A DNA stretch of 64,000 nt from Spizellomyces punctatus DAOM BR117 (taxonomy: Eukaryota). The DNA lies in NCBI GenBank assembly GCA_000182565.2, contig KQ257455.1; one strand, written 5' to 3'. The notes beneath the pieces were generated by a model. That model did not search any database. It was not told where the DNA came from and was given only the letters and a program-made list of their open reading frames with translations. This document shows positions 2,224 to 31,321 of this stretch, piece after piece. The position numbers and the translations under genes are program-made. The stretch's first letter is position 1; every line of letters begins with the position of its first letter.

Positions 2224-5200
2224 TTAACTTTCGTTACCCAAAATATTAATTTGCCATCTCGAAGGACTAGGGGGCGGTTCGCCAAACAAATACTCGCCGC
2301 AGTAGTTTGGATCGACGAACGGTATGCTGCGAGAAGCCAGCCTCATGAGGACAGCTTGTTTGCGAAGCGTTGATGGTTCCTGATCTGTGATGACGTAGGT
2401 CAAATCCTGTTCAAAAGGTATATGAGGATACATGTTTGCAAATATGCCCTGTTGACAGAGCAGAGATCAAAGTCCTTACCTCCGTATTTACACCCCGAAA
2501 AGTCTTCGGGTTTGCAACAACCTTGGCTCCTCCAGCATTCAATAACCGCGTAAAACCGTCCTTTTTGCGGTTATCCACGAGCAGTAAGACTTTCCATCCC
2601 GTAAAACTTCCTGAATACGGATATCAGCGGAATCTTACACAATCAGCCCTAACTTGCTGACAAACCTTTTCGAATCCCATTAACCATCTCCGCGTTCTGC
2701 AGCTTTAGTCGCCATCGACGTGGGGCACTGAATACATTCCTATCAACTGGATTGACAGCGGTAAAATTTTAGATACGGGTGCCAACCCAGTGTTTTTTCT
2801 GCGTCTGGACACTTACTGGGAGGAGTATCTGGGTCTGGAACCCATTCATAGTCGACCTCATCAAGAAACCGAGCGGCGGTCTTACATGCTTCTATGTAAG
2901 TTGGCCGTAGAACCCTTTTATGTCTTTTAGATTAACTGATGCGAGATAAGCACAAACAATTGATGTTGACATACCAGGCACCCGCAGCAATAGCTGCAAG
3001 CGGCTTTTCCGTTCTTGCTGGTTTGCTCACTATGGAGTCAAGTATTAAGTATTTCTTGAAAGAAAATTAACATGCCAGCACCGTTCATGAACGAACCAAT
3101 TAAATGCGTGCAATCTGGGTGCCAACAATCATATTCAAGCACGGTACCGCCTAATCGGCTTATTAATTGAGACATTCGGACCCGCTCCTCGCGGGGCAAT
3201 CCAGAGAGCAGGAACTTTCTAGCGGCAGGTTCAAGCACGCGGGTCGAAATGGACATGCGAGAGGATTTGCGCATGGATGGTGGGGTTACCGTTGTGGGCA
3301 CAGAAATTGTTCTCTCGCTTACGGAGGATATTCCCATGCTAGTGGTTCTGGCATAGCTTGGTTCTTTTATGCCGGAGGAGCACACTGAAACTGTGCGGTT
3401 TGGGGGAATCGGGGCTTCGCTTTCAGTCGTGAATCCATTTGCATCGAGCGTACTACCAGTAAACGAGGAGTTACGTCTCAATAACTCATTCACCTCGTGA
3501 ACATTTTTGAGTTGTTGTGGCATAATGCCGGTATCAGTTAACGTCGTAGTGCCGTTCCCCTCTAGCTCTGTCGATGGATCCTCATTATTGGAGAGTTTAG
3601 GACGCTTCCCATTCGTCTCAATCTGTTCAAGCAGCTTGCGTTTCTCTACTCGACTATCGGGATCATCGTACACAATCACCGCGGCTTCTTCTTGCTGTCT
3701 GTTGGCAATCTGAGTTTGAGTGAAGGGGTGCACGTCCACTCGTCCGACTTCTTTGGTGCTGTCTTCAGTAGGGATGTCGTCGGAGAAGATGGAAGATACC
3801 GTCACATCCCGCCGTAGCACGCTGTGACGAGGTCGCCGTCGTGTCTATGCAGGATTTTACGTGAATCAATATTCTCGGCACACAAATCACAACAAATTTG
3901 CCGATTACCATTTTCGCGTCCAAGAGCCTGTCGATGATTTCAACATATTTCTCAACACCTGGTAGCGGCGCGCTTTGATCATCTCCCACGTCGCACTGAT
4001 CGTCTCGTGAATCATCAGCATGTGGTGACTGTTGGTGTTGCCGCGCGTCTTCTTTCACATCATCCCGCTCAAGCTTTTCTTGCGGAGACGAGGACGCTGA
4101 TGTCTCGTTCGGATGCTGATCTTCTACCGTATCTGACATCCGCTGGCTGCTTGTTGGTGTAGATATGGATAATGCTCGATGGGGATTGTACGTATGGGGA
4201 TAATCCAACTCCTTGACACGCTGCCCAGTCTCATGGCACGCCACAAGCCAGGAGGGCGACACGATATACTTTCCGCGCTGCCGGGCAATCTTAAAGTCCC
4301 GGAACGCTTCATTGACGCGATTGCCTTGATGCATATAGTGGGTGCAAGTATCGCTGTAAGCCACGAGCATTTCCGCCCCCATTCGAGTTGCAATTGGGTA
4401 CAGCGCAGATCGTCTATGAACGACTCGGGGGCTGAGGCAGATTATTACTCCTTGAAGAAGGGTTGGTGGTGGTGCAGCATTTTTCTGCTCCACACACGAG
4501 CCAGATGAATCTATCGAATGGATCTGGCCAACGGACCCCTGTCGTGGCCCATTAGCTTGTCGAACAGCCTTCTCAAGGTTTTTCGTGAACGATACTTCCA
4601 ACGGCGACCCGCTCATTACATTGCGGCCAATGTCCCGCAGTTGCGCTTTCGGCGTAATCAAGGACGACAAGACCGCGTTGGTTTCAAATCTCGGTTGAAA
4701 AGCACCTGTTGCCGGAAACTCGCTCTCTTCGTCTAAATCTGACACTTTATCCTCGAAAGCCGTATTACGATCGAACAAATCTGATGCTTGGACGTTAATA
4801 ATCGTCCAATAGAAACCAGTCCGTTTTTCACAAACCAGATGCCTTTGGACGCCTTGTAACGTCGACGGTGTTTCCCACGCTTTCGCCCTCCAGAGGATGC
4901 ACTACATATCCCTGCAGATACTTATATAAGTTCGCCTTAAAACAGCTAATAGGACATACTGCTTACAGCCGCGGCGCATGTATATAACCAGTCCGCATCC
5001 ACAATTGGTATTCGCCAATCCTTCGCCCGTCGATATTTGGCATTATCTGTGCCCGGTTTACATAAAAGATGCGTGTTTTGTTTCGAAAATGTCTCCGTAA
5101 AGGTGGCACCTAAGAGATGCTGCAGAATAAGATGAGGCTAATTGAAAACATTTTAACATGGTACACCGTACCCATAATCGTTGTCAGCTTTCCTAAATGA

Positions 5201-7805
5201 GCACGCTCTACGCCCTCATATCCTGACACTCCAATTACGTATCTGTTAAAGCCTAGTTTATGATGAGACCCGATGCGGCTTTATTGGCTCTCACTCCATG
5301 TTGTTACCTACCTGGCAGCGGCATATCTTGTCGTAAAGGAGTGAATAGGATGTTTGCCTTCATATCATGCAACAAGCCATCCTGCGCGGTTACACCAGCT
5401 AAAGGTTAAGAAGCACTAATGAACGGTCCCTATAATCACCAGACAAATACCTCTATACATCTTTCCAACCAGAACTCAGTCACCAACCGTGATCGTAAGC
5501 CGACTTTTCCAGTAGATCTATGGATACTGACATTGTCAATGACTCTAGAAGGTAAATTAACGTACAACTAAAAGGCTTGAATTACCCGAGCAGTGGAACA
5601 ATCACTATGTGATCATCGGTAGACTCCGGAAGGCTAACTATAAAGCTCCCTCCTTGCCCTTCAACCAGCTGGCGTAGCATCTCACGCTAATAGCTCAGAC
5701 AATAGACGTGAGTCTGCCAGCGAACCTTTCAATTTTGCTTCGGCAATGCTTACCTCTTCTGAACCAAAGCCTGAGCAACTAAACCGTATTCCTGAGAAAA
5801 CACCTGGCAAAGAACAGCGTTATCCATAACCCTCGGGCTTAGGATCCTGGTAAAAGGCTAAAATACCGTTGTATGCTTGTGAGCCGGGCCTAGCGTAAAC
5901 AATAGTCAATTACCTGACTCATAAATTGAACGGTGGGTATGACAAAGACTCACCGTTCACAATGGATACCAGATGCTGCCAGTGATTGGTTGCTGATATT
6001 GCACTCAAGGTTCGGTCTGGACGTGTATCGTGGCGAAGAGATTGCTGTAGGATGACTTGTTGATAGTGATCCCTTACCGCGCCCTTCCAGCGGCGCTTGG
6101 TTCGCGATAACAGCAGATTCGTCACCATTGGGGGCTTCCCTCGCCTTTGTCAGCACTCGATGGGCCATACTACTGGTCTCCAGAGGGTCAGCAAATACGT
6201 CTTCCATCTGGAAACTCGACCTCGACCTTTTTTGTGCATCGCGCAACCGTGACTTTGGCTTCACCGTGTCAGCATTTAGGCCCGTAATATCGCGTTGTTC
6301 CGAAATACAGCGGGTCCGCCTCGCAGTGGATGCTTCAAATGGGTCTTCCCCCACATCAATCATGTAGGAGTCGGTGGGTAATGGCATCCGCTCGCGGTAG
6401 CAATCACGGAGCCACTGATACGATATAACAGGTATAAATCGCGCACTAGTCCGGATCATGCGGATGTCACTGGGCAAAGCAGGTAGTTTGTTATTATCAA
6501 TGGCCAGCCTCGACGCGATTCTAGCGGCTTACCCTTCAGAAGCAGTCCTCCCTGGAACTAGATAATGAGTAACAAACCCGTCAAACGCTTTAGGCATTGA
6601 CCCTCCTCCGGCTCGAATCATCTTTTTGATTTGCTGTAACTGCTGATCACTAAATCCTTCCCCAGGATAGATATTACATCGATCGAGATAGAGCAGAGCG
6701 CAATCCTGAGAGGTACTATCGTCATCTTCGAGAAGGGCCAATGACGTACTATCCACTTTGGCGTTCGGGTCTTTGACTTCAATAGGGTAGAGAATTTCAT
6801 CCGCGCATGCTGTTCAAGTCAACCAATCAGTGATATGGCCATAGTATGAAGCACAACCAGCAAGGTGTTCTCTACCATTCATGGCAATAGAATCATGCAA
6901 CCACTGAGCGTTTACAATGTTCAATTTCCATTTTATGGCCGCGTCATGCTTCCTACTGCCAGCACTGAGCAGAACTTGTCAGGTTACCAATATTATATGT
7001 CCACACAGAAAACGGGGCACATACCACGCGGCAATGAGATGCGTGCAGGTTGAAGTCAGCTGTCCTGAAAAGTCTCCACCGTTTTGCAACACGAGTTCTT
7101 TAATCGTTTGCACTTCCGCTGCAGGATATGTTAGACGAGGTCCTCTGGCCGTAATCCATACCGGATTCTCACATGGTTGAAAGTTTGTTACAGCAACACG
7201 TAATCCGGCAAAGGGTAATAACTCGTACTCTGCAATGTGCTGCTGAATGTCAATGAGTTGGCTCACAATGTTCGGATATCATAGATCTCGTCTCACTTTT
7301 AAAGGATCGAATCGCTCGTCGTTGCGATGAGAAAAGCAGAGGCGAATCCAGGCAGTTCGTACGATGGGTATGGAAAGCTTTGCAGCCATCTATGACAAGA
7401 ATTAGCCCATGCTATATCGTAACATGGCCACTTTCTGTCGATTATGTGAATACATACCCTGTATTTTTCTGCAAAAACCCAAAGTCAATGTGTGATATTT
7501 GAAACTTGCTTTTAATAACGATATGCTTCTGACAAACCTGATCTTACCGTATCGGCAAGTAGATAATTGACTTGGACATTCAGGCCTTGGCTGTAAGTAC
7601 CGCCCAGTTCCTCAACCATAGTTCTGATCTCCTGCTTTAGGTTCACGCACGAGGAAATTCAGCCTATGCAACGACCGGACAAGTGCAAGCAATTATCCTT
7701 GAGAAAGAATGACTGTACCTTCAACTCCCTATCCATACTGGAAGCACATATCACTGTGCCTTTCAACAGCATGTTGGACTGTCGGTTGTCGTCTGCGGTT
7801 AGCAT
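2224..7805 (-). CDS. TOPBP1: TOPBP1/Rad4/Cut5 family multi-BRCT replication-checkpoint scaffold, about 8 BRCT domains
   Basis: Repeated BRCT motifs ([40 protein letters not shown]...[10 protein letters not shown]...YPHTYNP, KFLLSGL...CTHLI), an ATR-activation-like motif [15 protein letters not shown], many introns including an 11-nt micro-exon (7458-7468). Confidence 0.9.
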
Positions 7806-12401: not shown

Positions 12402-13715
12402 ATTTCTAGAGTAGCGGTAGTTGCTTTGGGGTAGACATTTTACCTTTCCTTGACTAGCAGGCTCCAGTTAAGGATTAGACATTAGTATGATTCTATGCGT
12501 CTGTGGATATTGAGCAGACATCAATAAAATGTCTCGTGATAAACATTGGTTTGAATTGGAAGATCACTATTATGGGACAGTGCTCCTACCAGGTCATTAA
12601 CCTGTTGCCTCTAAAGGTTATAGGTGCGCATACGGAAAGACCCAAGTAGGTAAGCAAGGATGTGTCCGATTTGGTCAATTCTGATGACCAGTTTGTTCTT
12701 CAACTTTTCTCAGGGGTCCCAAAGCCTCCTGCTCATCCATACTACCGTCCTCGAACCCCTTTTACTGTCTCAGTTATCCTTTTTCATCACAAAGCGCTTT
12801 GCGATCTGTCGTTACACTCTGACGGTCGGAAAATGTATGGCGACGGCGACGTCCGTGCTTGGACAGACTCGTGATCGTCCACGTCCCGATCGCTTATGTA
12901 AGCAAACGTTGTCAATCACTACAGGATTACCATAAAACTGCCTGACTGAAAACCTGCGAATATATTTATTGCGTCGTGCCAAGCAGAGGCCCTTTGTTAA
13001 ACTTGGTAGATGCCCAGAGTCCCCGATGAGCCCTTTGCGCTCGCTATCTTACCACAGATCCCGATGTTGACATGGCTGTCGTCGCCATTAAGTTGCGATA
13101 AACTCAATGGTCCGAGCGCGCTCATGCCCTTCTTTGCAATTCGCATCGGCACAGTCGTTGTCAACCCAGCAGACCGCGACGAAGTAATCAGGAAGTTGTA
13201 GTCGAATTATAAAGGAAATGAATTAACAATTTTGGACACAAGGAGCTATGAAATCGCTCGTTTGCATCAGAGGGATTTTCCTGAAGAAAAGCGAGTGCCG
13301 TTGAAAGATGTTTGGGCAAAACTGAATACCCTACATCCAAGGGGACCATCCCGAAAAAGCATTATTCTAGTGACCTTTTGAGATCCCTACGGTTCAAAGT
13401 ACGTGCCTAGAGAGTGTGCCGCTTTCGCCGACCTCAAGCGAGCTGCTTTGACGATCTCAACCTGAAACTGAACAAGATTGACAGGAGGGCCTTTGATCAG
13501 TCTTCTTCTGGCTGAAGAAAGAGTCCGCTGTCTCTGCAAGGAGATGGATCGGAAGGGTACGCAAATAGCAGATTGGATGAATCCGAGCCAAATTCCCGTA
13601 TAAAGATGACGCCTGGGAGGACACTGAATGACATATGTAGGGCAATCCTTGTTGAGTATATTGTGACTCATTTTTTGACATGCAAGTGCTCTCCACAGCT
13701 GTGCTTTTCTCATTG

Positions 13716-14400
13716 TTAAGCTGTGGATTTCCTCAAGATTGGGACCTGCTGCTGGCAATGTGACCGAGACAGTGCAGCCAAGGTCGGCGCCCCTATTGCA
13801 TGATATTCCCATTGATTCCCAAAACGGCCGTCACTGTATTTGTATGATACTGACAGAGCTACCAGAGCTTCCACTGAAGTCATATGCATTTGCGCTGGGT
13901 TGACGCTCAATGTCCTAGTTTAGGGTATTGATCCCACTGCACGAGTTGGGTACCTCCGGTGCATCTACTTTACCTTGGCAATACTCCCTGTACGCTAGCT
14001 GTAAGAATGGGAACTGTCGTTGCACCCATGAAGGTCGTGAAGCTTGCTGAGGTTGCACCCGACAGTCATTCAAAGTACGAACAGACAGGACATTACATCT
14101 GAGTTGTTAACCCAATCCATAGACATACACATTGTTCGTGGAATGAGTACCCGCTGTAGGCGCGTGAATGGGCACCGCAGCGTATCCAACGTACGTTCCA
14201 GAAAATGCAAAGGTCAATGCTTGCACTGCACCGAGTAGTCCTCCAAAACAGTGGCAAAGCACCCGCGTATGTCCCCTCACAATTGCCTTGTCAATGGAAT
14301 AATCTTTTCCGAACCCTGGCTCCAAAAGATATTCGTATCGCCGAGTCATGTCCATCACCCCCATCCATACCACCATTATCTTTGATCCTGAAGAGATGGC
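13716..14400 (-). pseudogene. Decayed intron-containing gene, possibly class 3 lipase-like
   Basis: Fragments EPGFGKDY, RVLCHCFGGLLG (compare GHSLGG), TTFMG and QWEYHAIG in lipase-like order, with plausible splice sites; nucleophile motif not intact. Confidence 0.25.
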
Positions 14401-14902
14401 AAACCTCTGATGGGGACACCCTCGTGAGCATGGAGGCCAAGAAGACTCTTGGGTGGATGACCCTGATGAGGCTGACGAAGCCATCTTAAAGGCGACAAAG
14501 GCGTCCAAAGACGCGATCGATCAGGTATCATCTGCGGGGCATGTCCTCGACTGGTGTATGCAGCCAACTCGAAGAGTTGGATGTGCAGTAGAGGTCATTC
14601 AAACGGCACACTTCAAGAATGACATGTTTTTTCAAGCGACACCCAAGTCGGCTGCGAGTTGCATGGCAGTATGGAAGTAGACTGTATATTTGCCAAAAGG
14701 GCCTATGTGGCAATTACCTGTGCGTTTCGTTGTCCGTTGTCCAACGCAGTTCAGACGTCGAGTTGAGTGCTGCGCCTCGGAGGGTAACACGAGAGGTCCG
14801 CGCATCGCGTGACATTCAAGTTGGCAAAGTTGGCTTTTGTAAGTTGGTGCTTTCGACTTGCTAGTTTGCCCACCTAGAGTTGTCTTTTGCTTCAACATCA
14901 CA

Positions 14903-17337
14903 ATGCTTTGCACGCGCACCAGGCCCGCAGCCCGTTTCCTGCAGGTGAAGACATGCCTTGTGGACTTCTTTCTCGTCCTGCACACCTAACAATTCCTGTC
15001 TCAGTTGGCTAGCCGGACATGTACACTTGCCTCTGTGCGAGGAATGTCTCTTACAGCTACTGTGGAACGCACAAAGTCACAAAAGACACCGACTACACAA
15101 TTGTATGTCAACGGAGAGTTCTTTGAGTCACAGACGAAGCAGTGGTTTGAGTTGCGCAACCCAGTAAGTGCTCCACAAGCAAGCATAGTGCAAGAGTTAA
15201 GCGACTAATATGTTTTTCTTTATAGGCAACTCAGGAGCTCGTAACGTTGGTACCACAAGCGACGCCGGAGGAATTGAAGCATGCGTCCCGAACCGCTGAA
15301 GAGGCATTCAAGACATGGAAACAGAGCAGCGTATTGACTCGACAGCGGATCATGATGAATCTACAATTGCTCATAAGAGATAACATGGTGCGCTGATACT
15401 ATGGAACTTTAACTGTTGCAATATTGGATAATTGCTGAGCGCGAGCTTTTTATAGGATGAACTTGCGAAATCCATCACGACAGAACAAGGAAAGACATTT
15501 CCAGATGCCAAGGGTGATGTCCTGCGTGGTCTGCAAGTGTGAGTAAACTGCCATGCTGTTAAATCTCTGGACACTTGTTCCTCAACAGTCCGTGTCGCAG
15601 AGTTGAGAACGCGTGTGGTATCCCGTCGCTTCTGATGGGTGAGAAGCTTCCCGTTGCGCGAGACATGGACACGTTCACCATCCGTGAACCATTGGGCGTG
15701 GTCGCTGGTATTGCCCCTTTCAATTTCCCCGCTATGATACCCTTGGTAGGTTGTCCGTCAGCCTCCTCCAGGTTTGTGAGCACCGAAAACCTTATGATTT
15801 CAACATTTTACAGTGGATGTTCCCTTTGGCCATCGCAACAGGCAACACATGCCTCATCAAGCCTTCGGAGCGGGATCCGGGTGCTATGATGATATTGGCA
15901 AAGCTCGCTGAAGAAGCTGGTGTACCTAAAGGTGTTCTCAACGTTGTGCATGGCGGTACGTCAAGAACATTTTAAAAGTTCAAGAACATTGCGTTCAAAG
16001 ATACTAATGTGATCCATATATAGGTGTCGATACTGTAAATTTCCTCTGTGATGACCCTGCAATTCGTGCCATCTCGTTTGTTGGCTCAGACAGAGCTGGA
16101 AAATACATTTTCTCACGCGGAACTGCCAACGGGAAACGGGTTCAAGCCAACCTTGGAGCAAAGAACCATGGTGTGATTATGCCAGATGCGAACAAAAACC
16201 ACACCTTGAATCAGCTTCTTGGAGCTGCTTTCGGAGCTGCTGGTCAGCGTTGCATGGCGTTATCTACTGTCGTGTTTGTGGGAAAAGCGAGGGAATGGTT
16301 GCCGGAGCTTGTGGAACGCGCCAAGACGTTGAAGGTTACTGGGGGATTTGAGGAGGGCGCTGATTTAGGGCCACTTATTACTCCCCAGGCTAAGGAACGC
16401 TGTGAAGAGCTGATTCAATCTGGTAACCAAGTAACATTTCATGATATATTGTGCAATCACTGAGGCGTATTGCTGCCATTTTACATAGGTATTGATGAAG
16501 GCGCTACATTGCTGCTGGACGGACGGAACCCTCAGGTTGAGATCACGTTCTTGGTTGTGCCCGATGGCATGTGCGCTTACTGTTCTTTAGGTTCCTGAGA
16601 AGTACAAGGCCGGAAACTTCGTTGGTCCAACCATATTAGGAGATGTAAAACCGACAATGCGATGCTACACCGAAGAGATCTTTGGTCCAGTCTGTATTCG
16701 GGTCAAAGGCCGCACAGTTTGCATTCATTTGGCTTATATGTAGTTTCCAGGTTTTGGTATGCCTTTCAGCTGACACCTTGGATGATGCGATCAAGATGGT
16801 GAACAGAAACCCGTATGGTAAGGTGGTTGTGTTCTAATTTGGCCGCTCGCTTGTGACTAACCTTGTGATGCTCTATAGGCAATGGAACTGCTATTTTTAC
16901 CAATTCGGGCGCAATTGCTCGCAAGTTCACGGAGGAGATTGATGTTGGCCAAGTCGGGTAAGCCCTTGACATCCAGTATTTGGTATCAAGGCTTCACTAA
17001 CATTATTGTAATACCCAGTGTGAATGTCCCCATCCCTGTCCCGCTGCCTATGTTCTCGTAAGTTTTGCACAGTCAAGTTACAATTATGCGTCAAGATTCT
17101 TATCTTGGCTCAATGTATTACCAGGTTCACCGGGAGTCGCGGAAGCATTCAGGGAGACCTCAACTTTTACGGAAAAAGCGGCATTCAGGTAGAGTATCTG
17201 TCACATAACGCTGAGATAACTTTGATATTCACTATCATTTGTAGTTTTACACTTCGACGAAGACAGTTACGCAACTCTGGAGACACGAAGATGCCACTGA
17301 GCTGGAGGCAGCTGTCAACATGCCTACCCATCACTAA
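14903..17337 (+). CDS. ALDH6A1: Mitochondrial methylmalonate-semialdehyde dehydrogenase (CoA-acylating), many introns
   Basis: [49 protein letters not shown] motifs. Confidence 0.95.
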
Positions 17338-17872: not shown

Positions 17873-20800
17873 ATGTTGGCACGATCCCCAACCCCTCCTC
17901 TACATCCCCATTATGCCTCTGAACAACTCCTAGAGATCCTGGGCTCTAGACACTCCCATCCAGAATCAATTTCAACAAAGCTTCACCCGTTGATTGTGGT
18001 CTGTCTCTATTCGGCCTTTATGTACTTTTGACCCGCCACTGAAATGCACTGGATATGTAGCCTTGTCTCGAAGAATTCCGTCAAACGCCGTCCCTACTTC
18101 GTTTGCCAGCATTCTGGCAGCCTTTCGGGTCTGACTCTGAACAGCGAAATGCTTGCGCGGCATACAATTTCGTATCTGAGTTGGTGAACGTTTTACGGGT
18201 TTCGGGCAGTGAAAAGGAATTGTATTTGAGAACAAATGAGATATTGGAACTACTAGGTGGATTTCAATGCTGTTCTGTCTTCCGAGATTGCTAGAGCCTT
18301 ATGTTTATCTGCTTGTCGCGACCGTGTTTCTTAGCGAAGGATTCGTTATGGCGAGAACTTATTGCTGTATTTCAAGTGCCGCTCATGGAGATCTTGGCCC
18401 TTGATCTCACGAAATGCACTGACAAGCTTCCAAAGGTGCCTTTTACGAGTGCGCGGTGACCCATGCAGCCCATTATAATTTGGTACATTCGTCGTAGCTT
18501 GTTACTCTTCTGAGTATCATTACATATAAAAGCGAGGTGAAATGCACTGCACCGGACTTTGTTGAAATCCTTTGTGATAAGATGTGAGTAAAGGTGGGTT
18601 GAATGGGACTTGGGCCACCAGTGGGATCAGAGTTACATGAGTTATATCGTTGCCAGCATGACCATTGAGACCCTCAACTCGGAGATACTGGGATTATTTT
18701 CCAACCTTTGCGAGTCCGAGGCGTTCCGGAATACCCTCTTATCCGTATCAGTACTACCACGAATATTGCGGCGATTGGTGAAGATGCTGAGCGACGAGGT
18801 TAGCTTGATACGTTTTATGGCTTCCTTGCATAAAACTTATCTAGTTTTGTGACGTAGAACTTGATTCTCGTGATTTACAGCCTCCAGATTCTCGTGCAAC
18901 TTGTTGGATGCACCAGTATTATCCAAAATCTATTTAACGATGCAAATGTTCAAGAAGCATGGAAATTGGTTGTTACTATATTGAGCAAGCAGAATTCCCA
19001 AGAATCGTGCCACGAGGCTGCTATCGACTTGCTAGAATTCATGTTCCGGCAAGAGAAGTTGGTGGGAACTTTGAAAAGGTATGTTCTGGAAACTTGATTG
19101 GCAGGAGGGCTGTATTTTGACGAATTTTAGATATGTGTCAGATACGCAGGTCATACGCAAATTACTGCTGTCTTTGTCGAAAGATGAAGCACTTTTGTCC
19201 CAAGTATGGTAACCTCCAGAGAAATACCGAATTACTCTTTGCATCTCATTAATGCTGGATGTCGTATAAGATGTGCCGTTTTGCGGCGGTGATGATGGAG
19301 AATTGCAAATATAGTCACCAGCTACTAGCAGTAGTACTAGAGTCCGATGCAGTACCGAAGGCGTTGGAGGGCATTGCCCAATATTGTCTTGAGCCGAAAG
19401 AGAAGCTGGTTCGTGGCCGTAACGGGCAACATGATCGGGGAATGCAAATCCGCTCCAGCACCGTCAACGCATGTAGTTTTTTGCGAACCGTACTTATCGC
19501 GGTACTGTACCATAATAGCCTCCTTCATCCTTGGACGGACGCTGGACTAACTCATTCCTATAGCTCGAGAATGAATCTGTAACGCAAGAAGAGTTTGATC
19601 GACTTGCCGACCAGTTTATCCCATCAATACCCCTGTTGCTTGATTGCCTTGCGTCGGCTTTGGAAACCGTCAAGGAAGATCAAATGAACGTCGAACCTGA
19701 GAATCATGAATCAGCCCAGCGGTTGACACAAAAAGAATTGCTAGAACTTGCCCAAACGATTGATGATATCCTTTTGTTATTGATTTTGCTTTCTTTCGAG
19801 TATATAGCTTTTGCAAGTGCCTTGACTCTTCACACTTTTGATTACATTCCCCCGGTTCGATCTAGACGAGGCGGATATGGAAGCAGTTGATACTGAACGG
19901 TGGATATCTATTGCCTTGGAAATTGCCGTGGCGTATCTATGGAGCAATATGAAGAGTGGGGATGCATGTGCTGCTGTTTTTACTCTCGTTACTCACTTGG
20001 GAGAGACCAAGAAAGTGCCGTATGCGCTGGAGGTGAGATGAAAATCAGGAGCCACTTGCTGATGAAGCCGCAATGACCATATCCTTAGTTTCTGTCAAGC
20101 GATGAGGTTGCCAAAACGCTAGCGACAATAATGCGTGAATCTTCCTGCTGTTCTACAATTGAGCGTATCCTGGCTCTGGTCGCACGAACAACTCATTGCC
20201 AACAAATGTCAGTAAGGTTGTTGTAAAGTTGAATCTATTCGGCTGCTAACTTTGACCGCAGGCTAGGTCGTTCTCTGGCTCGACTGAATATATCGAGAGC
20301 AGCTGAAGACTGGCAAGAGAAGGATATCGTAAATAATGCGAATAATGTAGACACAAATCTTGGTCGAGTTACTGCTTGTTCAAAACCAAAGAAAAGATTC
20401 GAGTTAAAAGAAGTGGACGAGACGTTGGCAACCTTGGAAAAGCTGGTAACCTCTTTCAGCCGTATTCAAAACAACGGCGATTGTCCTTAAGACATGGCAA
20501 TTTCAGGAAGAGGAGCTTGCTATCACACGAGAGAACATGCGCAAAGAGATGGAGCTCAAAGATGCGATTTCTCAGCGGAAGATCTCTGTCCACTCGAACA
20601 AATCAGAATTCCTGAAGGTGAGTTAATGGATTGAGACAACCTAGTTCAATTTCTCACAGCTTGGTGGTATCCATAGGCAGAACTGGATCGGTTAACTGTA
20701 TGGTGGTTGGGTGGAGTTTGACTCCCACGTTTAGCATCTTATAAGAGTCTCCTATTCTAGGAATGTTTGGACCAGAAGACATCTGCTCTTGAACAAAGCG

Positions 20801-21572
20801 AAATAGCAAATGCAGATATGACCCAGAAGGTGAGCAAAGTGCCTTAGATGGCTCCAAATATGGAACTTACTGAACACCGATGTTAATTTGACCACTAGGT
20901 AGCGGATTTGCAGAGGTCACTTTCAGAAGCAAGACACGAGAGTAGCAGAATCAAGGGAGAGCTTATCCAAATGACGGAAGAAACAAATAGATACAAGAAA
21001 AAGAATCATGAGACTGAGCAAGCATTGGCATGTTGTCGAGAGAAGTAAGTTATTCACCAGCATACGTTCACGCGCACATGAAGCGCCTTTATTCAGAACC
21101 TTTTCTATAGACTTCGAGAGGTGACGGATGAAGCTGCATCTGCCACAGAGAATATCCACCGCCTCGAACATGAGAAGGATGCACAGGGAAAAGCGCATAA
21201 GGCCCGGCAAAAGGAATTGCAGCTGGAGATACAAGATTTAACCCATCAACTAAAGGAATTGCAGGCAGAGGTACGGCCTAGTGAATCCTCTAGACATGTA
21301 GTAGCTCATCTCTAATCATAATCCTGGTATAGAGAGCTTTATTCCAACAAACCACGGTCGCTCAAAAGGCACGGATTTCCACCCTGGAGGAAAAGGTGAA
21401 AGAGCTGCAACTTGAGCTCGGAGACCAGGAACGTGAGCATGATGAAATCGTGATGAAATTGGCACAAAGTTTAAATAGCCTTAATTTGCGGAAACGAAAA
21501 GGCGTGGTTGCGGTTGGGGGAAAGATGAAGGATGAAGTTGATGAAGAGCTGTCCAGTGGGCAGGAGCCTTGA
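17873..21572 (+). CDS. CIP2A: CIP2A (KIAA1524)-like protein: N-terminal ARM repeats plus C-terminal coiled coil
   Basis: Spliced segment LLSIITYK...ILGLFSNLC...LVKMLSDE|NLILVIYSLQILVQL...LFNDANVQEAWKLVVTIL...AIDLLEFMFRQEKLVGTLKRY is colinear with recalled human CIP2A (LLQKLTYN...CLGLLANLC...LTVVVFALSILSSL...LFHARNI...[21 protein letters not shown]); long E/K-rich coiled-coil tail. Confidence 0.78.
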
Positions 21573-21728
21573 ATAAACCAATGGTTGCAATGTGCAATTT
21601 ATCTCTTTTTGGAAGAATGGCGGTGTCATTTCGCGCTGGTCATTAAACCGAGCAAGTTCGGTCCAAAGTGAGATTTCCCACTTCAACTACTTTTCGTCTT
21701 TTCATCTGTGCATTATCTATTATTCGCC

Positions 21729-22218
21729 ATGTCGCAACCATCGGGCAAAACCGCACAAGTGCAGGACCAAGTGAATGAGGTCGTCGGCATTATGCAAGGT
21801 GAAAACTCGCACAACTGGCGAAGAACTTCTCAAGGCGGTGGCTGACTCAATTCCTACAGATAATATCAATAAGGTCATGCAAAGAGGCGAGCAACTTGAC
21901 ACCCTACAGGACAAGACAGGTATGTCCTGCCAATATGGCTGTGGCATATAGCAGCGGACTGACTCTATATCTTTGTGCAGAGGACCTTCAAAACTCCTCG
22001 CTACAATTCAAGCGAGGAGCAAACAGGGTCCGAAAACAAATGTGGTGGAAGGATATGAAGATGAAGCTTATCCTTGGAGGGGTCATTGCAGCTGTTTTGA
22101 TTATTATTATTGGTGCGTCTGCAAGACAGTATTCGATTACTGAGAAGGAGCAGAAGGAGAACTGACATTTCCTTTTTCCTTGTCGTCAGTCTCGGTTATT
22201 TCTAGCACGAAGAAGTAG
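21729..22218 (+). CDS. SNC1: Synaptobrevin/VAMP R-SNARE (Snc1/2-like), 4 exons
   Basis: QVNEVVGIMQDNINKVMQRGEQL...FKRGANRVRKQMWWKDMKMK followed by a TM helix. Confidence 0.95.
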
Positions 22219-22586
22219 ACTAAGAAATTGTTTACTGCTCTTGAAAGTATGGCGGCATCTTGATACCACGGCGCTTATCGACCCAGGCGTATGCGCCCCC
22301 ATCGGCTATTTTTTTGGATGGAGTCTATAATGTAGTTTGAATAGGCGCCTTTCGAAGTTTGTATTTTTACTTATTAATTATTGACTGTAACTCACACATC
22401 ATTACCATGCTGAAAAAAAAAGAGAGCGTTATGGTGTTGGTGCAAAATGGTTCAAAGATGCACTTCAGCTCAATCCAGTATTGAGGCATTGATCGTTAAA
22501 GTTCCCTTGTTGCCATGGCAATATCAAATGGTGCTTTTACGTTGTTCGTTCTCCGTCCACATTCCTACGCACACTGGGTACGCATC

Positions 22587-24146
22587 ATGTCACCGGCAAA
22601 GACAGGCGCATCCCCTCCTGCTCCGACCACCTTTCTCGATGGTGCGGCTTACACTGTCACCCAAACAGAGGATTCTTTGACGATTACATTGCCAGTTCCC
22701 GACGAATATGACCCTAAACGCCGTGAGGGAGATGTGGTTGAGATACAAGAAAATACCCTCTTAGTTAAGGTTCAAGGAGAGGAGACTCCTCGACTCTCTG
22801 GCTGGCTTTTTCATCCCATCAACAAGTTTGACTCGGTGTATGACCTCCAAAGAGACGCAAGAACGGACTTGCGTCTCTTGAACCTAAACCTCACCAAAGC
22901 TGGTCCTTCCGACTCATTCATGCCTGCACCAACATACCCTGTCCTTTTTTCATCTGGTCTCAACACCCCTGCACCCATGCCGAAAGATGCAGCTTTGGAC
23001 GATATGGACCCTCACTCGTTGTTCCTTCTGGCGGACTGGATGCTCAAAAGACTAGCAAAGCCCGACCGTGCTTTGGCATGGTACAGTAAAGCCGCAGAAC
23101 GTGGCAGCATCATGGCGTGCTTGAAATTGGGAGCATGGTTTGAACTGGGTAAAGATGCGCACAAGGATATACCTGTGGAACGCGATCGTGCAAAGGCTTT
23201 CGAATACCACCTGCGTGCGGCCGATCTGGGACACCCGGAGGCCTGCTTAATTGTGAGCGAATGGTTTGCGCCGATGAGTCAGGATATGCTGATAAAGCTG
23301 CGACCTGGAGAAGAGGAGACTCAAAATTTGGGCGTGCAAACCCAGGAAAAGGATTTTGCCAAAGCGGTTAGCTATCTGGATCGGTTACGAGATATTGTCA
23401 TCCAGCACCGGGCGACACAAGCTCCCTCGACTCGTGAGCTAATGGGATTGGCAATGTGGCGTGCTGGTGTCTTGTACGCCGAAGGCGGGAACGGTCTTCC
23501 TTCCTCTGCGGAAGGTATTTCCCAGTCGTTTGCTTATTTCTCTACAGCCGCACTGGACTACCGTCACCCGCGAGCTATGTGGTCTCTAGCTCTATACTAT
23601 ATAAATGGATTCGGCTGCGATCAAAACATCCCTCAAGGCGTCGAGCTGCTTAAAGAAGCTTTGGCCGCTGACCCAAAACTGGATCTCCCCCCGCAATTTC
23701 AGGGGCTCGATGGCATTGGCCTGGATATCTTAGTCGGAGTGGAGAAGGAAGCGAGAACGGTGAATGGTGTCGAGCCGGGCAAAATCTTGGATGTGGAGAG
23801 TCTTGTCAACGCTGCTCGACGTGTGGTTGAAAAGGCGGGAGGCAAGGAAAAAGTGGAGGACACTGTAGAAAAGGCTTTGAAAGAGTTGGAACTTTCCGTT
23901 GTCAAGGTTAACATGATGGAAGAACCCGCTGGCACAAAGGCAGAAGCAAAGGTAGAGGAAAAAATTCATGTAGAAAAGTCTGCTAAACTGAAGAAAAGAA
24001 GAGTATCAAAAGCGAAAGCGAAAGCCAAGTCCAGAACGCGGAACACTGGGTGGTCTGGTATGGAGATTGCTGTGGGAGTGGGTATTGTCGCAGCTGTGGG
24101 GGCTGGGCTGTGGATCTGGATGCGGAGCTCAAAAGTCAAAGCTTGA
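22587..24146 (+). CDS. Intronless protein: CS/p23-like domain, SEL1 repeats and C-terminal tail anchor (alternative start 22515)
   Basis: YTVTQTEDSLTITLPVP (CS-like); ALAWYSKAAERG, KAFEYHLRAADLGHPEA, AMWSLALYYINGFGC (SEL1); C-terminal hydrophobic helix plus basic tail. Confidence 0.8.
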   Translation: MSPAKTGASPPAPTTFLDGAAYTVTQTEDSLTITLPVPDEYDPKRREGDVVEIQENTLLVKVQGEETPRLSGWLFHPINKFDSVYDLQRDARTDLRLLNLNLTKAGPSDSFMPAPTYPVLFSSGLNTPAPMPKDAALDDMDPHSLFLLADWMLKRLAKPDRALAWYSKAAERGSIMACLKLGAWFELGKDAHKDIPVERDRAKAFEYHLRAADLGHPEACLIVSEWFAPMSQDMLIKLRPGEEETQNLGVQTQEKDFAKAVSYLDRLRDIVIQHRATQAPSTRELMGLAMWRAGVLYAEGGNGLPSSAEGISQSFAYFSTAALDYRHPRAMWSLALYYINGFGCDQNIPQGVELLKEALAADPKLDLPPQFQGLDGIGLDILVGVEKEARTVNGVEPGKILDVESLVNAARRVVEKAGGKEKVEDTVEKALKELELSVVKVNMMEEPAGTKAEAKVEEKIHVEKSAKLKKRRVSKAKAKAKSRTRNTGWSGMEIAVGVGIVAAVGAGLWIWMRSSKVKA

Positions 24147-25454: not shown

Positions 25455-26577
<1,123 letters not shown>

Positions 26578-28928: not shown

Positions 28929-31321
28929 ATGGAGCAACCAAAAATACATAAGCGGATATATAACGATACTCCCCGCTCTCCGCCAAAGCGTCATTTGTAT
29001 GTTCCTGTCAGACATCCACCTTCTCCGTCGTCGGACTTGTTTGAGAAGTCTGGAGAGGACGCTGTTCATACTGTTGTGAAAGAGGATGATTCTGATTCGA
29101 CAAACTATAGTGTGCTGCTGCCGGTATCAGCGACGTTGCAACGAGACCAAACCCCCGACTCAACAGTCTCGGAACTTTTTGCAGACGGATCTCGTGGAAA
29201 CGCAGGTTCACGAGACCTTTCTACGGACAGAGCATCAAATCGTTGCGATAATTCCAGAGGTAGTCAAGTTTCTACCCCTAGTTCAGTAGACAAATTTAGA
29301 AGACGTAACCCCATATCGCCAGTAACGTCTGGATCGTCAACAGCGGGAGACTCACCAGAGCCAAATAAGCCAGAGCTAGGCCACGAGACGATATCCGGAT
29401 GCGATTCAGCACCAACTAGCGAAAAAGGCCGACCGTTGTCGAAGGAACATACTACGATGGCCCCCAAAATGTCATCCAAGCGAAAGCGCAGTTGTGACCT
29501 TTCTGCCGAGTCACCACGAAATGGATTCGTCCCAAAAGATGTAAATGTCGATGAGGGCAATCGTGCCAATGCAGTAAAAGGGCCTGAGGGTGCGGCGAAA
29601 ACTGCCAATAGAAAAACTCCTGCTACGACAAAACCAAAGATAAGACGAAGAAATGATCATCGTCACTTGTCGAAGAGGGCCATGGAGCCTTGTATCAGTG
29701 CTCTGGATGTTGTCAAAGAACATCTGAAACTTTACTCGTTGCGTGAGTATTTGTCTGTGGCAAACATTTGAAAATTGTTCAGAAAGATGCTAAAACCTGC
29801 CTGAAAGTCTCAGAATCAGGAACCCGCGTACGTGAAGAATCGGATATGGAGACCATTGAACTGCAGTACCCTGGGGAAAGTGCTTCTGAAATGTAGGCTA
29901 TCTGTGTTCTGTTGTTGGCATCTCAGACCGTTCTACTAACACTCTTTGGGCACCGTAGCTTCCCACTCGTCGTATCACGGAAAGCTTTAGAATACAATCC
30001 AATCAAAGACATCTATGCAACAACTCAGTTTATTATCGAAAATTGCCTGAAAGACGAACATGCAGCGCGTTTCGGTGATACACGGTCCGGCATACTTCGA
30101 AGTATACAAAAGGCATGTAATCGGAAAAACGCAGAAGACCTGAAGGCAGGAATAGCGGCTTGGAATGAGGAAATGAGCGCTCTCAAAAAGAAAAAGATCT
30201 TTGCAAGTTGTGAATTTACTGGGCCTGCCGCAAGTTATCCTATGATAGCACACATCCTAGAGCAAGCATATTCACGATCAGTAGCACCCAGCTCAAGTTT
30301 ATTAAATAATTACGAAGGTATATAAGAGACGTGCGCTTCACCCTGAACCATTTCTAAGCTTTCGTTTCGTTATGTCTTAACCTTTTAGGGTTCTCAAATA
30401 ACGTTTACGGTGAAGTAAAGCATAATTTTGTAAATACCATTATCAAGGAGGCCAACATACAACCAAACCATGTATTTGTGGATATGGTACGTTTCGTTGT
30501 TGTCAGAATTGTTATCAGATGGTGCTGATACTGCTGACGCTGTCACCTTAATCTTAGGGCAGTGGTATCGGAAATGTTGTGCTACAAGTGGCAGCACAAT
30601 GCCTATGCGATTCATATGGAATAGAAATAATGGAAACGCCGGCGAAGCTGGCAGCTAAGCAGAAGAAAGAATTTGTATCCCGCATGAGGTTCGGTTTCAT
30701 CGCACTTGTTCTCGGCGGTGCTATGCATCAGTCTAATGGTGACTTTTTATTTGCTGAACAGATATTACGCAAAGCCTTGTGGCAGAATCACGTTGAAACA
30801 CACTGACTTCCTTGAAGACAATGAGATGCACGAAGTCATCAAGAAGGCCGATGTCATCTTTGTCAATAAGTCGGTACCTCTACTGTTGTATAACCGGTTT
30901 GTGAGACTATCCTTAACCAAGTTCCTCAGCTATGCCTTCAGTGCCGAGTTGAATCAAATGATCCTAGCCAAGTTTTTGGACTTGAAAGAAAATGCAATTG
31001 TAAGTAACCTTCCCGCATGCTACTGGTATCGTTACATTTAATTAGAGGCTGATCGAATCTCGTACGCAGGTCATTGCGCTTCGTAGTTTTGTTCCTGTTG
31101 ATCGCCCAACAGCGCGAAGTGCTCGACGAAGCAATGCCATTGAATCCATTTTTAGAGTGAAAGAGGTAGGTCACGTTCAGCCGCAACTATCCGAACGCGT
31201 TGATAACTTACGAGGCTCTTAGCATTACTTTGGTCGGGATAATGTGTCATGGATGAACGAAGGAGGACAGTACTATATCCACACTGTCGACCGTCGACAA
31301 CTCGCTAAATTATCAAGATGA
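28929..31321 (+). CDS. DOT1: Histone H3K79 methyltransferase Dot1
   Basis: NNVYGE, FVDM|GSGIGNVVLQVAA, YGIEIM, ADVIFVN|NYAF and VSW motifs across exons. Confidence 0.93.

Follow-up and report, generated by a model that had tools for sequence, protein, structure and literature searches.

Within a 64,000-nucleotide stretch of the genome of the chytrid Spizellomyces punctatus DAOM BR117 (contig KQ257455.1; hereafter the window), the annotated gene SPPG_03764 (protein P0001) encodes a member of the CIP2A family, and a multi-BRCT gene of the TOPBP1 type lies about 10 kb away. An initial annotation had proposed a fungal CIP2A homologue at positions 17873..21572. On the plus strand, this interval is the annotated coding sequence (CDS) of SPPG_03764 from start to stop codon, because every residue of the protein maps exactly onto it. 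All 874 amino acids were placed by an exact splice mapper, in 18 exons separated by 17 introns of 52-78 nt, and the exon at 18888-19061 is 100% identical to the protein. An orthologue of 851 aa from a sister species, Spizellomyces sp. 'palustris' (P0002), shares 82% identity with it. In SPPG_03764 the chytrid has an orthologue of animal CIP2A, which adds a new fungal member to a known family. Automatic annotation had already recorded this: UniRef lists the protein under a CIP2A N-terminal domain name, and Pfam family PF21044 stands in its precomputed Pfam column. The novelty implied by the initial annotation was thus overstated, while the family assignment itself was correct.

That SPPG_03764 is homologous to animal CIP2A can be held with near certainty, as four independent lines (profile, pairwise sequence, reciprocal search, and fold) agree. 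PF21044 (CIP2A_N) matches the protein with E 6e-10 and a score of 38.8 bits, where the curated cut-off is 26.3, with residues 143-464 aligned to positions 103-408 of the 544-position profile; no other domain family reached its cut-off, and the sister protein P0002 scored 33.1 bits with the same profile. When all PDB sequences were searched with phmmer, the sole match at E<=1 was human CIP2A (5ufl_A, E 7.9e-10), in which residues 141-412 of SPPG_03764 align with residues 120-388 of the human protein.

The reverse direction gave the same family. A phmmer search with residues 1-588 against 1.84 billion representative proteins returned 21 matches at E<=1e-3, which are clusters at 50% identity and mark the family as small. 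Twenty of these (P0003-P0022) were scanned with Pfam, and PF21044 was present at E<=1e-3 in 17; two of these (P0003 and P0006) fell just short of the cut-off, which the other 15 reached or exceeded. P0005, P0012, and P0022 matched no Pfam family. The other families seen at E<=1e-3 were coiled-coil ones, ATG16 (in P0008) and HAUS1 (in P0014), each under its own curated cut-off. P0013, P0018, and P0021 reached 414-555 bits with PF21044, and P0021 is a canonical CIP2A that matches human 5ufl at E 5e-146 across the whole core. BLASTP aligned residues 83-259 of SPPG_03764 with this canonical protein (E 1e-12), in an alignment of 186 residues with 30% identity.

Structure prediction led to the same assignment. 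When residues 1-588 were modelled with AlphaFold2 (AF2) on an alignment of 22 rows, an all-helical repeat domain resulted, with a predicted local distance difference test (pLDDT) score of 84.9 and a predicted template modelling (TM) score of 0.85. In a Foldseek search with this model, the two chains of human CIP2A, 5ufl_B and 5ufl_A, ranked at the top (E 7e-12 and 2.5e-11; TM 0.58-0.66), and the next entry was a designed armadillo protein (E 8e-6; TM 0.33-0.43). VIA-align, which is independent of Foldseek, also placed 5ufl_B first (Z 20.6; root-mean-square deviation 5.9; 477/511 residues aligned), superposing residues 14-580 of the model on residues 5-560 of the 5ufl chain; the next chain had a Z of 17.4 with 283 residues aligned. 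In the ESM Atlas, CIP2A was the best match on both criteria, with a feature score of 0.92 (170 shared) and a structural TM of 0.70 across 507 residues. Colinearity with human CIP2A, noticed initially over about 150 aa, is therefore wider, spanning residues 141-412 by phmmer, 83-259 by BLASTP, and 477 residues by structural alignment.

The proposed combination of an armadillo domain and a coiled coil was also borne out. In the full-length AF2 model, the helical core extends to residue 589 and is followed by a low-confidence or disordered segment (589-625), an uninterrupted helix (627-838), and a disordered tail. Within the helix, block pLDDT ranges from 48 to 88 (76-88 across residues 641-790), and a 3.5-residue hydrophobic periodicity was equalled in only 3/5000 shuffles. 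Human CIP2A (KIAA1524; PDB 5UFL for the core) is described as 905 aa long; its armadillo domain takes up residues 1-560, and its C-terminal part is a coiled coil (PMC9288427). The two proteins thus agree in layout, with the coiled coil placed C-terminal to an armadillo-like core of ~560-590 residues. Their folds superpose over 477 residues, and identity across the structural alignment is 17-18%. These comparisons demonstrate both homology and a shared architecture, in which the chytrid core of ~590 residues is joined by a disordered linker to a coiled coil of ~210 residues.

One intron of SPPG_03764 is unusual. Intron 9 is the sole non-GT-AG intron among the 17; it is of the AT-AC type, begins with the U12-type donor ATATCCTTT, and has a branch-like box, CCTTGAC, with its A placed 11 nt upstream of the 3' splice site. 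The protein maps to the genome only if this intron is included, and minor introns have been reported from S. punctatus (PMC10639083). The P0002 sequence departs from SPPG_03764 around residues ~425-465, exactly at the AT-AC intron, with a run of dissimilar residues directly ahead of RFDLDEADME. This mismatch looks like a gene-prediction error in which the minor intron was missed. About 6% of RNA run X7 was read; 98 of its reads fell on the SPPG_03764 stretch, mostly in the last exon (21337-21598), and 0 contained joints. These reads point weakly to transcription of the gene and do not address its introns; over 18455-20550, a range that includes intron 9, the run gave 0 reads. Contigs assembled from sequencing runs X1-X3 behave as DNA, because they are colinear with the genome and lack joints. 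A search of the whole window with Rfam gave 0 matches.

The second gene lies on the minus strand and is delimited approximately, from pieces of open reading frames (ORFs), by a stop near 2224 and a putative ATG at 7805. Pfam was run on 65 of the 83 window ORFs of at least 110 aa (18 overlapping ones being left out) and then on 25 minus-strand pieces between 1968 and 7972. BRCT-type families matched 8/25 of these pieces at E<=0.05, and a reading of their translations indicates at least seven different BRCT domains. At the C-terminal end, PF23294 (BRCT_TopB1_SLF1) matched with an E of 2.8e-7. Searches of PDB sequences with translations from this gene returned human TOPBP1 for residues 138-240 of P0023 (3jve_A, E 2.3e-18; 3pd7_A, E 2.5e-17), and residues 210-249 of P0024 matched 3al2_A (E 1.1e-4) and 23fd_G (E 2.7e-5). 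The search gave molecule names only; we take 3jve and 3pd7 to be BRCT6 of TOPBP1 and 3al2 to be BRCT7/8. A further piece (4949-5137) is BRCT5-like and matched S. pombe Rad4 at E 1.4e-6 as well as TOPBP1 chains such as 3uen (BRCT4/5). On the strength of the PDB matches to TOPBP1 chains and of PF23294, the neighbour is, at the level of sequence, a long, animal-type TOPBP1; the initial annotation had named TOPBP1 as the neighbour. A metagenome scan with P0023 found no relative.

Compared with known systems, the chytrid gene resembles human TOPBP1 in its many BRCT domains, including those matching BRCT6 (E 2.3e-18), BRCT7/8 (E 1e-4), and BRCT4/5. It differs in the interval between BRCT5 and BRCT6, which spans ~160 residues in human TOPBP1 (740-899; PMC9288427) and ~125 in the chytrid by reading of translations, and in that no tool identified in it the second CIP2A-binding patch (human 774-798) or the ATR-activating domain. 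Separately, in the interval between BRCT6 and BRCT7 (window 3041-3844, minus strand), residues ~52-75 of P0024 form a 25-residue stretch for which no tool gave an alignment; this stretch may resemble the part of the TOPBP1 ATR-activating domain that surrounds W1145, the W being a Y in the chytrid. Yeast Dpb11 and S. pombe Rad4 (Cut5) have four BRCT domains; Rad4 resembles the chytrid protein in its BRCT5-like piece, whereas the chytrid gene has in addition the C-terminal, animal-type BRCT6-8.

In humans, the armadillo domain of CIP2A binds TOPBP1 between BRCT5 and BRCT6 (PMC10566317; PMC9288427; bioRxiv 10.1101/2021.02.08.430060). Residues 830-851 of TOPBP1 suffice for the interaction in a two-hybrid assay, and a second patch at 774-798 contributes to binding (PMC10566317; PMC9288427; bioRxiv 10.1101/2021.02.08.430060). 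Within the shorter segment, F837, D838, V839, L843, and L846 are needed (PMC10566317; bioRxiv 10.1101/2021.02.08.430060). On the CIP2A side, an AlphaFold-Multimer prediction presented in a review places the TOPBP1 contact at residues 150-270, with 190-240 highlighted (PMC10566317).

Features that would fit both sides of this interface can be discerned in the chytrid pair. In the linker between BRCT5 and BRCT6, a ten-residue segment (P0023 72-81) opens with F, followed by an acidic and then a beta-branched residue, and has L at the +6 and +9 positions. The five human residues are spaced in this way, and the pattern can be written as F-[DE]-x4-L-x2-L. From the motif start to the Pfam start of the chytrid BRCT6 the distance is 73 residues; in the human protein, F837 lies 64 residues ahead of BRCT6, which is given as 901-985 (bioRxiv 10.1101/2025.09.09.675108). 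In SPPG_03764, conservation across 20 family members from outside Spizellomyces (alignment A2) peaks at residues 201-260; L232, F243, and N247 are invariant and L226 and L275 nearly so, all within 226-275. The conserved block aligns with residues ~190-249 of the canonical CIP2A P0021, inside the contact region predicted in the review, and corresponds to human ~190-250. The positions of all these features are collected in Table 1.

Table 1. Features of SPPG_03764 and of the neighbouring TOPBP1-type gene, in window coordinates
Feature	Position	Strand	Evidence
SPPG_03764 CDS, chytrid CIP2A-family gene	17873..21572	+	exact protein mapping and exon identity
Armadillo-like CIP2A core, residues 1-588	exons in 17873..20332	+	PF21044, 5ufl_A, Foldseek, VIA-align
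Most conserved block, residues 201-260 (L226, L232, F243, N247)	18748..18986, with intron 18799-18857 inside	+	conservation scan, invariant columns
AT-AC intron 9	19766..19835	+	needed for protein mapping
C-terminal coiled-coil helix (predicted), residues 627-838	exons in 20507..21461	+	AF2 model, heptad periodicity
TOPBP1-type multi-BRCT gene	2224..7805, approximate	-	Pfam BRCT pieces, PDB matches, ORF reading
BRCT6-like domain, P0023 residues 145-222	4236..4469	-	Pfam BRCT (E 2e-6); 3jve_A, 3pd7_A
Candidate CIP2A-binding motif, 10 residues, P0023 72-81, BRCT5-BRCT6 linker	4659..4688	-	human residue spacing

Taken as a whole, these observations are best explained by a CIP2A orthologue that acts as a scaffold and docks on the linker motif of TOPBP1, a reading to which we assign a probability of roughly 0.5. 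By analogy with human CIP2A, SPPG_03764 would dimerise or oligomerise via its C-terminal half. A conserved groove around residues 200-260 would take the short hydrophobic-acidic motif of the BRCT5-BRCT6 linker, after which both proteins could collect at sites of damaged or under-replicated DNA during mitosis. For the binding step on its own, the linker motif and the conserved block serve as leads, and we consider conservation of the CIP2A-TOPBP1 contact in the chytrid to fall a little short of even odds. A complex prediction with residues 1-588 of SPPG_03764 and P0023 38-145 returned a score of 0.00 and no call; as it was run without an alignment and the linker was poorly folded, it is uninformative either way.

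One alternative holds that SPPG_03764 is a generic armadillo and coiled-coil protein, for example one like Uso1/p115, that merely resembles CIP2A. Armadillo and HEAT repeats do yield many middling fold matches (262 in Foldseek at E<=0.001; 173 chains at Z>=8), and a Uso1 cluster appeared in the ESM Atlas at rank 11 by features with a score of 0.87. This score is below the 0.9 line of the tool, and the Pfam scan of SPPG_03764 detected neither Uso1_p115_head (PF04869) nor any other armadillo family at E<=0.1. CIP2A ranked first with every method, by six orders of magnitude in the Foldseek E-value, and the reciprocal search recovered essentially CIP2A_N proteins alone. The better match to Uso1/p115 or another armadillo family that would have overturned the initial annotation was thus sought by profile and by structure and did not appear, and this alternative is highly improbable. 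A far stronger contender accepts SPPG_03764 as a genuine CIP2A-family protein but gives it a job without TOPBP1 in chytrids, either in the regulation of PP2A-B56 or as a mitotic-kinase scaffold at the centrosome or centriole, with the tie to TOPBP1 arising later, in animals. The homology evidence from PF21044, 5ufl, Foldseek, and VIA-align fits this account equally well. CIP2A has been described as a PP2A inhibitor, a partner of NEK2, and a scaffold for CEP192/PLK1/Aurora A, and chytrids, which retain a centrosome or centriole, have canonical centrosomes according to one paper. The CIP2A-binding sites of TOPBP1 are called 'highly conserved in vertebrates' only (PMC10566317). Set against this account are the chytrid TOPBP1 itself, which retains BRCT6 and, ahead of it, the BRCT5-BRCT6 linker along with a motif that has human spacing, and the family conservation peak, which falls on the predicted TOPBP1 surface. 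A CIP2A working independently of TOPBP1 therefore seems a serious possibility, albeit one we regard as less likely than not.

Several points weigh against docking of SPPG_03764 on the TOPBP1 linker. The chytrid motif reads FET where the human one has FDV, so that D is replaced by E and V by T, and the comparison covers one fungal TOPBP1, that of S. punctatus. When the 108-residue linker containing the motif was shuffled, the pattern F[DE][VIT]x3Lx2L arose in 8/20000 sequences, a version with a free third position in 56/20000, and one with broad residue classes in 177/20000. The first figure is too flattering, because the strict pattern was fitted after the match had been seen, and 56-177/20000 is the fairer range. 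Similarity to CIP2A is low outside residues 80-410 of SPPG_03764. Finally, the conserved block could serve a partner other than TOPBP1: PP2A-B56, NEK2, and CEP192/PLK1 have been reported as partners of human CIP2A and could equally account for conservation of the core. A further question concerns the linkage of the two genes, for which the initial annotation had offered coincidence or conserved microsynteny. Two known binding partners have start codons 10,068 bp apart, and a distance of 10 kb for one named pair would arise by chance roughly once in 1000, given a genome that we take to be ~24 Mb. The genes are divergent, pointing apart, and the proximity is most likely due to chance, because about four unrelated genes separate them and they have no promoter in common; moreover, the pair was picked out post hoc from a very large scan. 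Conserved microsynteny reflecting co-regulation or co-inheritance of the partners is accordingly unlikely, and we similarly doubt that the linkage carries functional meaning. Human CIP2A and TOPBP1 both reside on chromosome 3q, tens of megabases apart, to which we give no weight.

The genes between the pair comprise a bestrophin, a subtilase, minus-strand ORFs lacking a Pfam match, and an aldehyde dehydrogenase. In the interval from the subtilase to the aldehyde dehydrogenase (13390-15757, minus strand), four ORFs of 117-147 aa gave no Pfam match at E<=0.001 and may be part of one further gene. On the 3' side of SPPG_03764 are a synaptobrevin (21803-22162, plus strand; E 2.9e-15), a protein with CS and Sel1-repeat regions in a single 548-aa ORF (22500-24143, plus strand), a Methyltransf_4 (TRM8-like) enzyme (25458-26111, minus strand; E 4e-47), and a fragment of a DOT1 histone methyltransferase (30688-31038, plus strand; E 2e-6).

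Because the CIP2A gene family has both fungal and animal members, it most likely arose before animals and fungi separated, provided that descent was vertical. The initial annotation had made this claim for the module as a whole; it holds for the gene family under the same assumption, while for the interaction it is plausible but unproven. To our knowledge, model yeasts have no CIP2A. A tentative scenario, for which we would not claim even odds, is that the tethering module is ancestral to animals and fungi, that the chytrid keeps both halves, and that both CIP2A and the C-terminal half of TOPBP1 were lost in Dikarya. Within the literature covered, which excludes subscription papers and was accessible in part, no description of a fungal CIP2A and no statement on CIP2A outside animals was found. 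The accessible parts of the studies on the CIP2A-TOPBP1 complex concern human and other mammalian cells only (PMC10566317; PMC9288427; bioRxiv 10.1101/2021.02.08.430060).

Should the interaction be absent, SPPG_03764 would be one more 'animal-like' gene kept in chytrids and lost in yeasts, already flagged by automatic annotation. If the docking reading is correct, a fungal CIP2A and an animal-type TOPBP1 with a docking-like motif would place the origin of the module before animals and fungi diverged. S. punctatus is described as a transformable unicellular system (PMC7213984). It would then offer a simple, genetically tractable model of a pathway under pursuit as a target in BRCA-mutant cancer, and would allow the complex to be studied without MDC1-centred vertebrate signalling.

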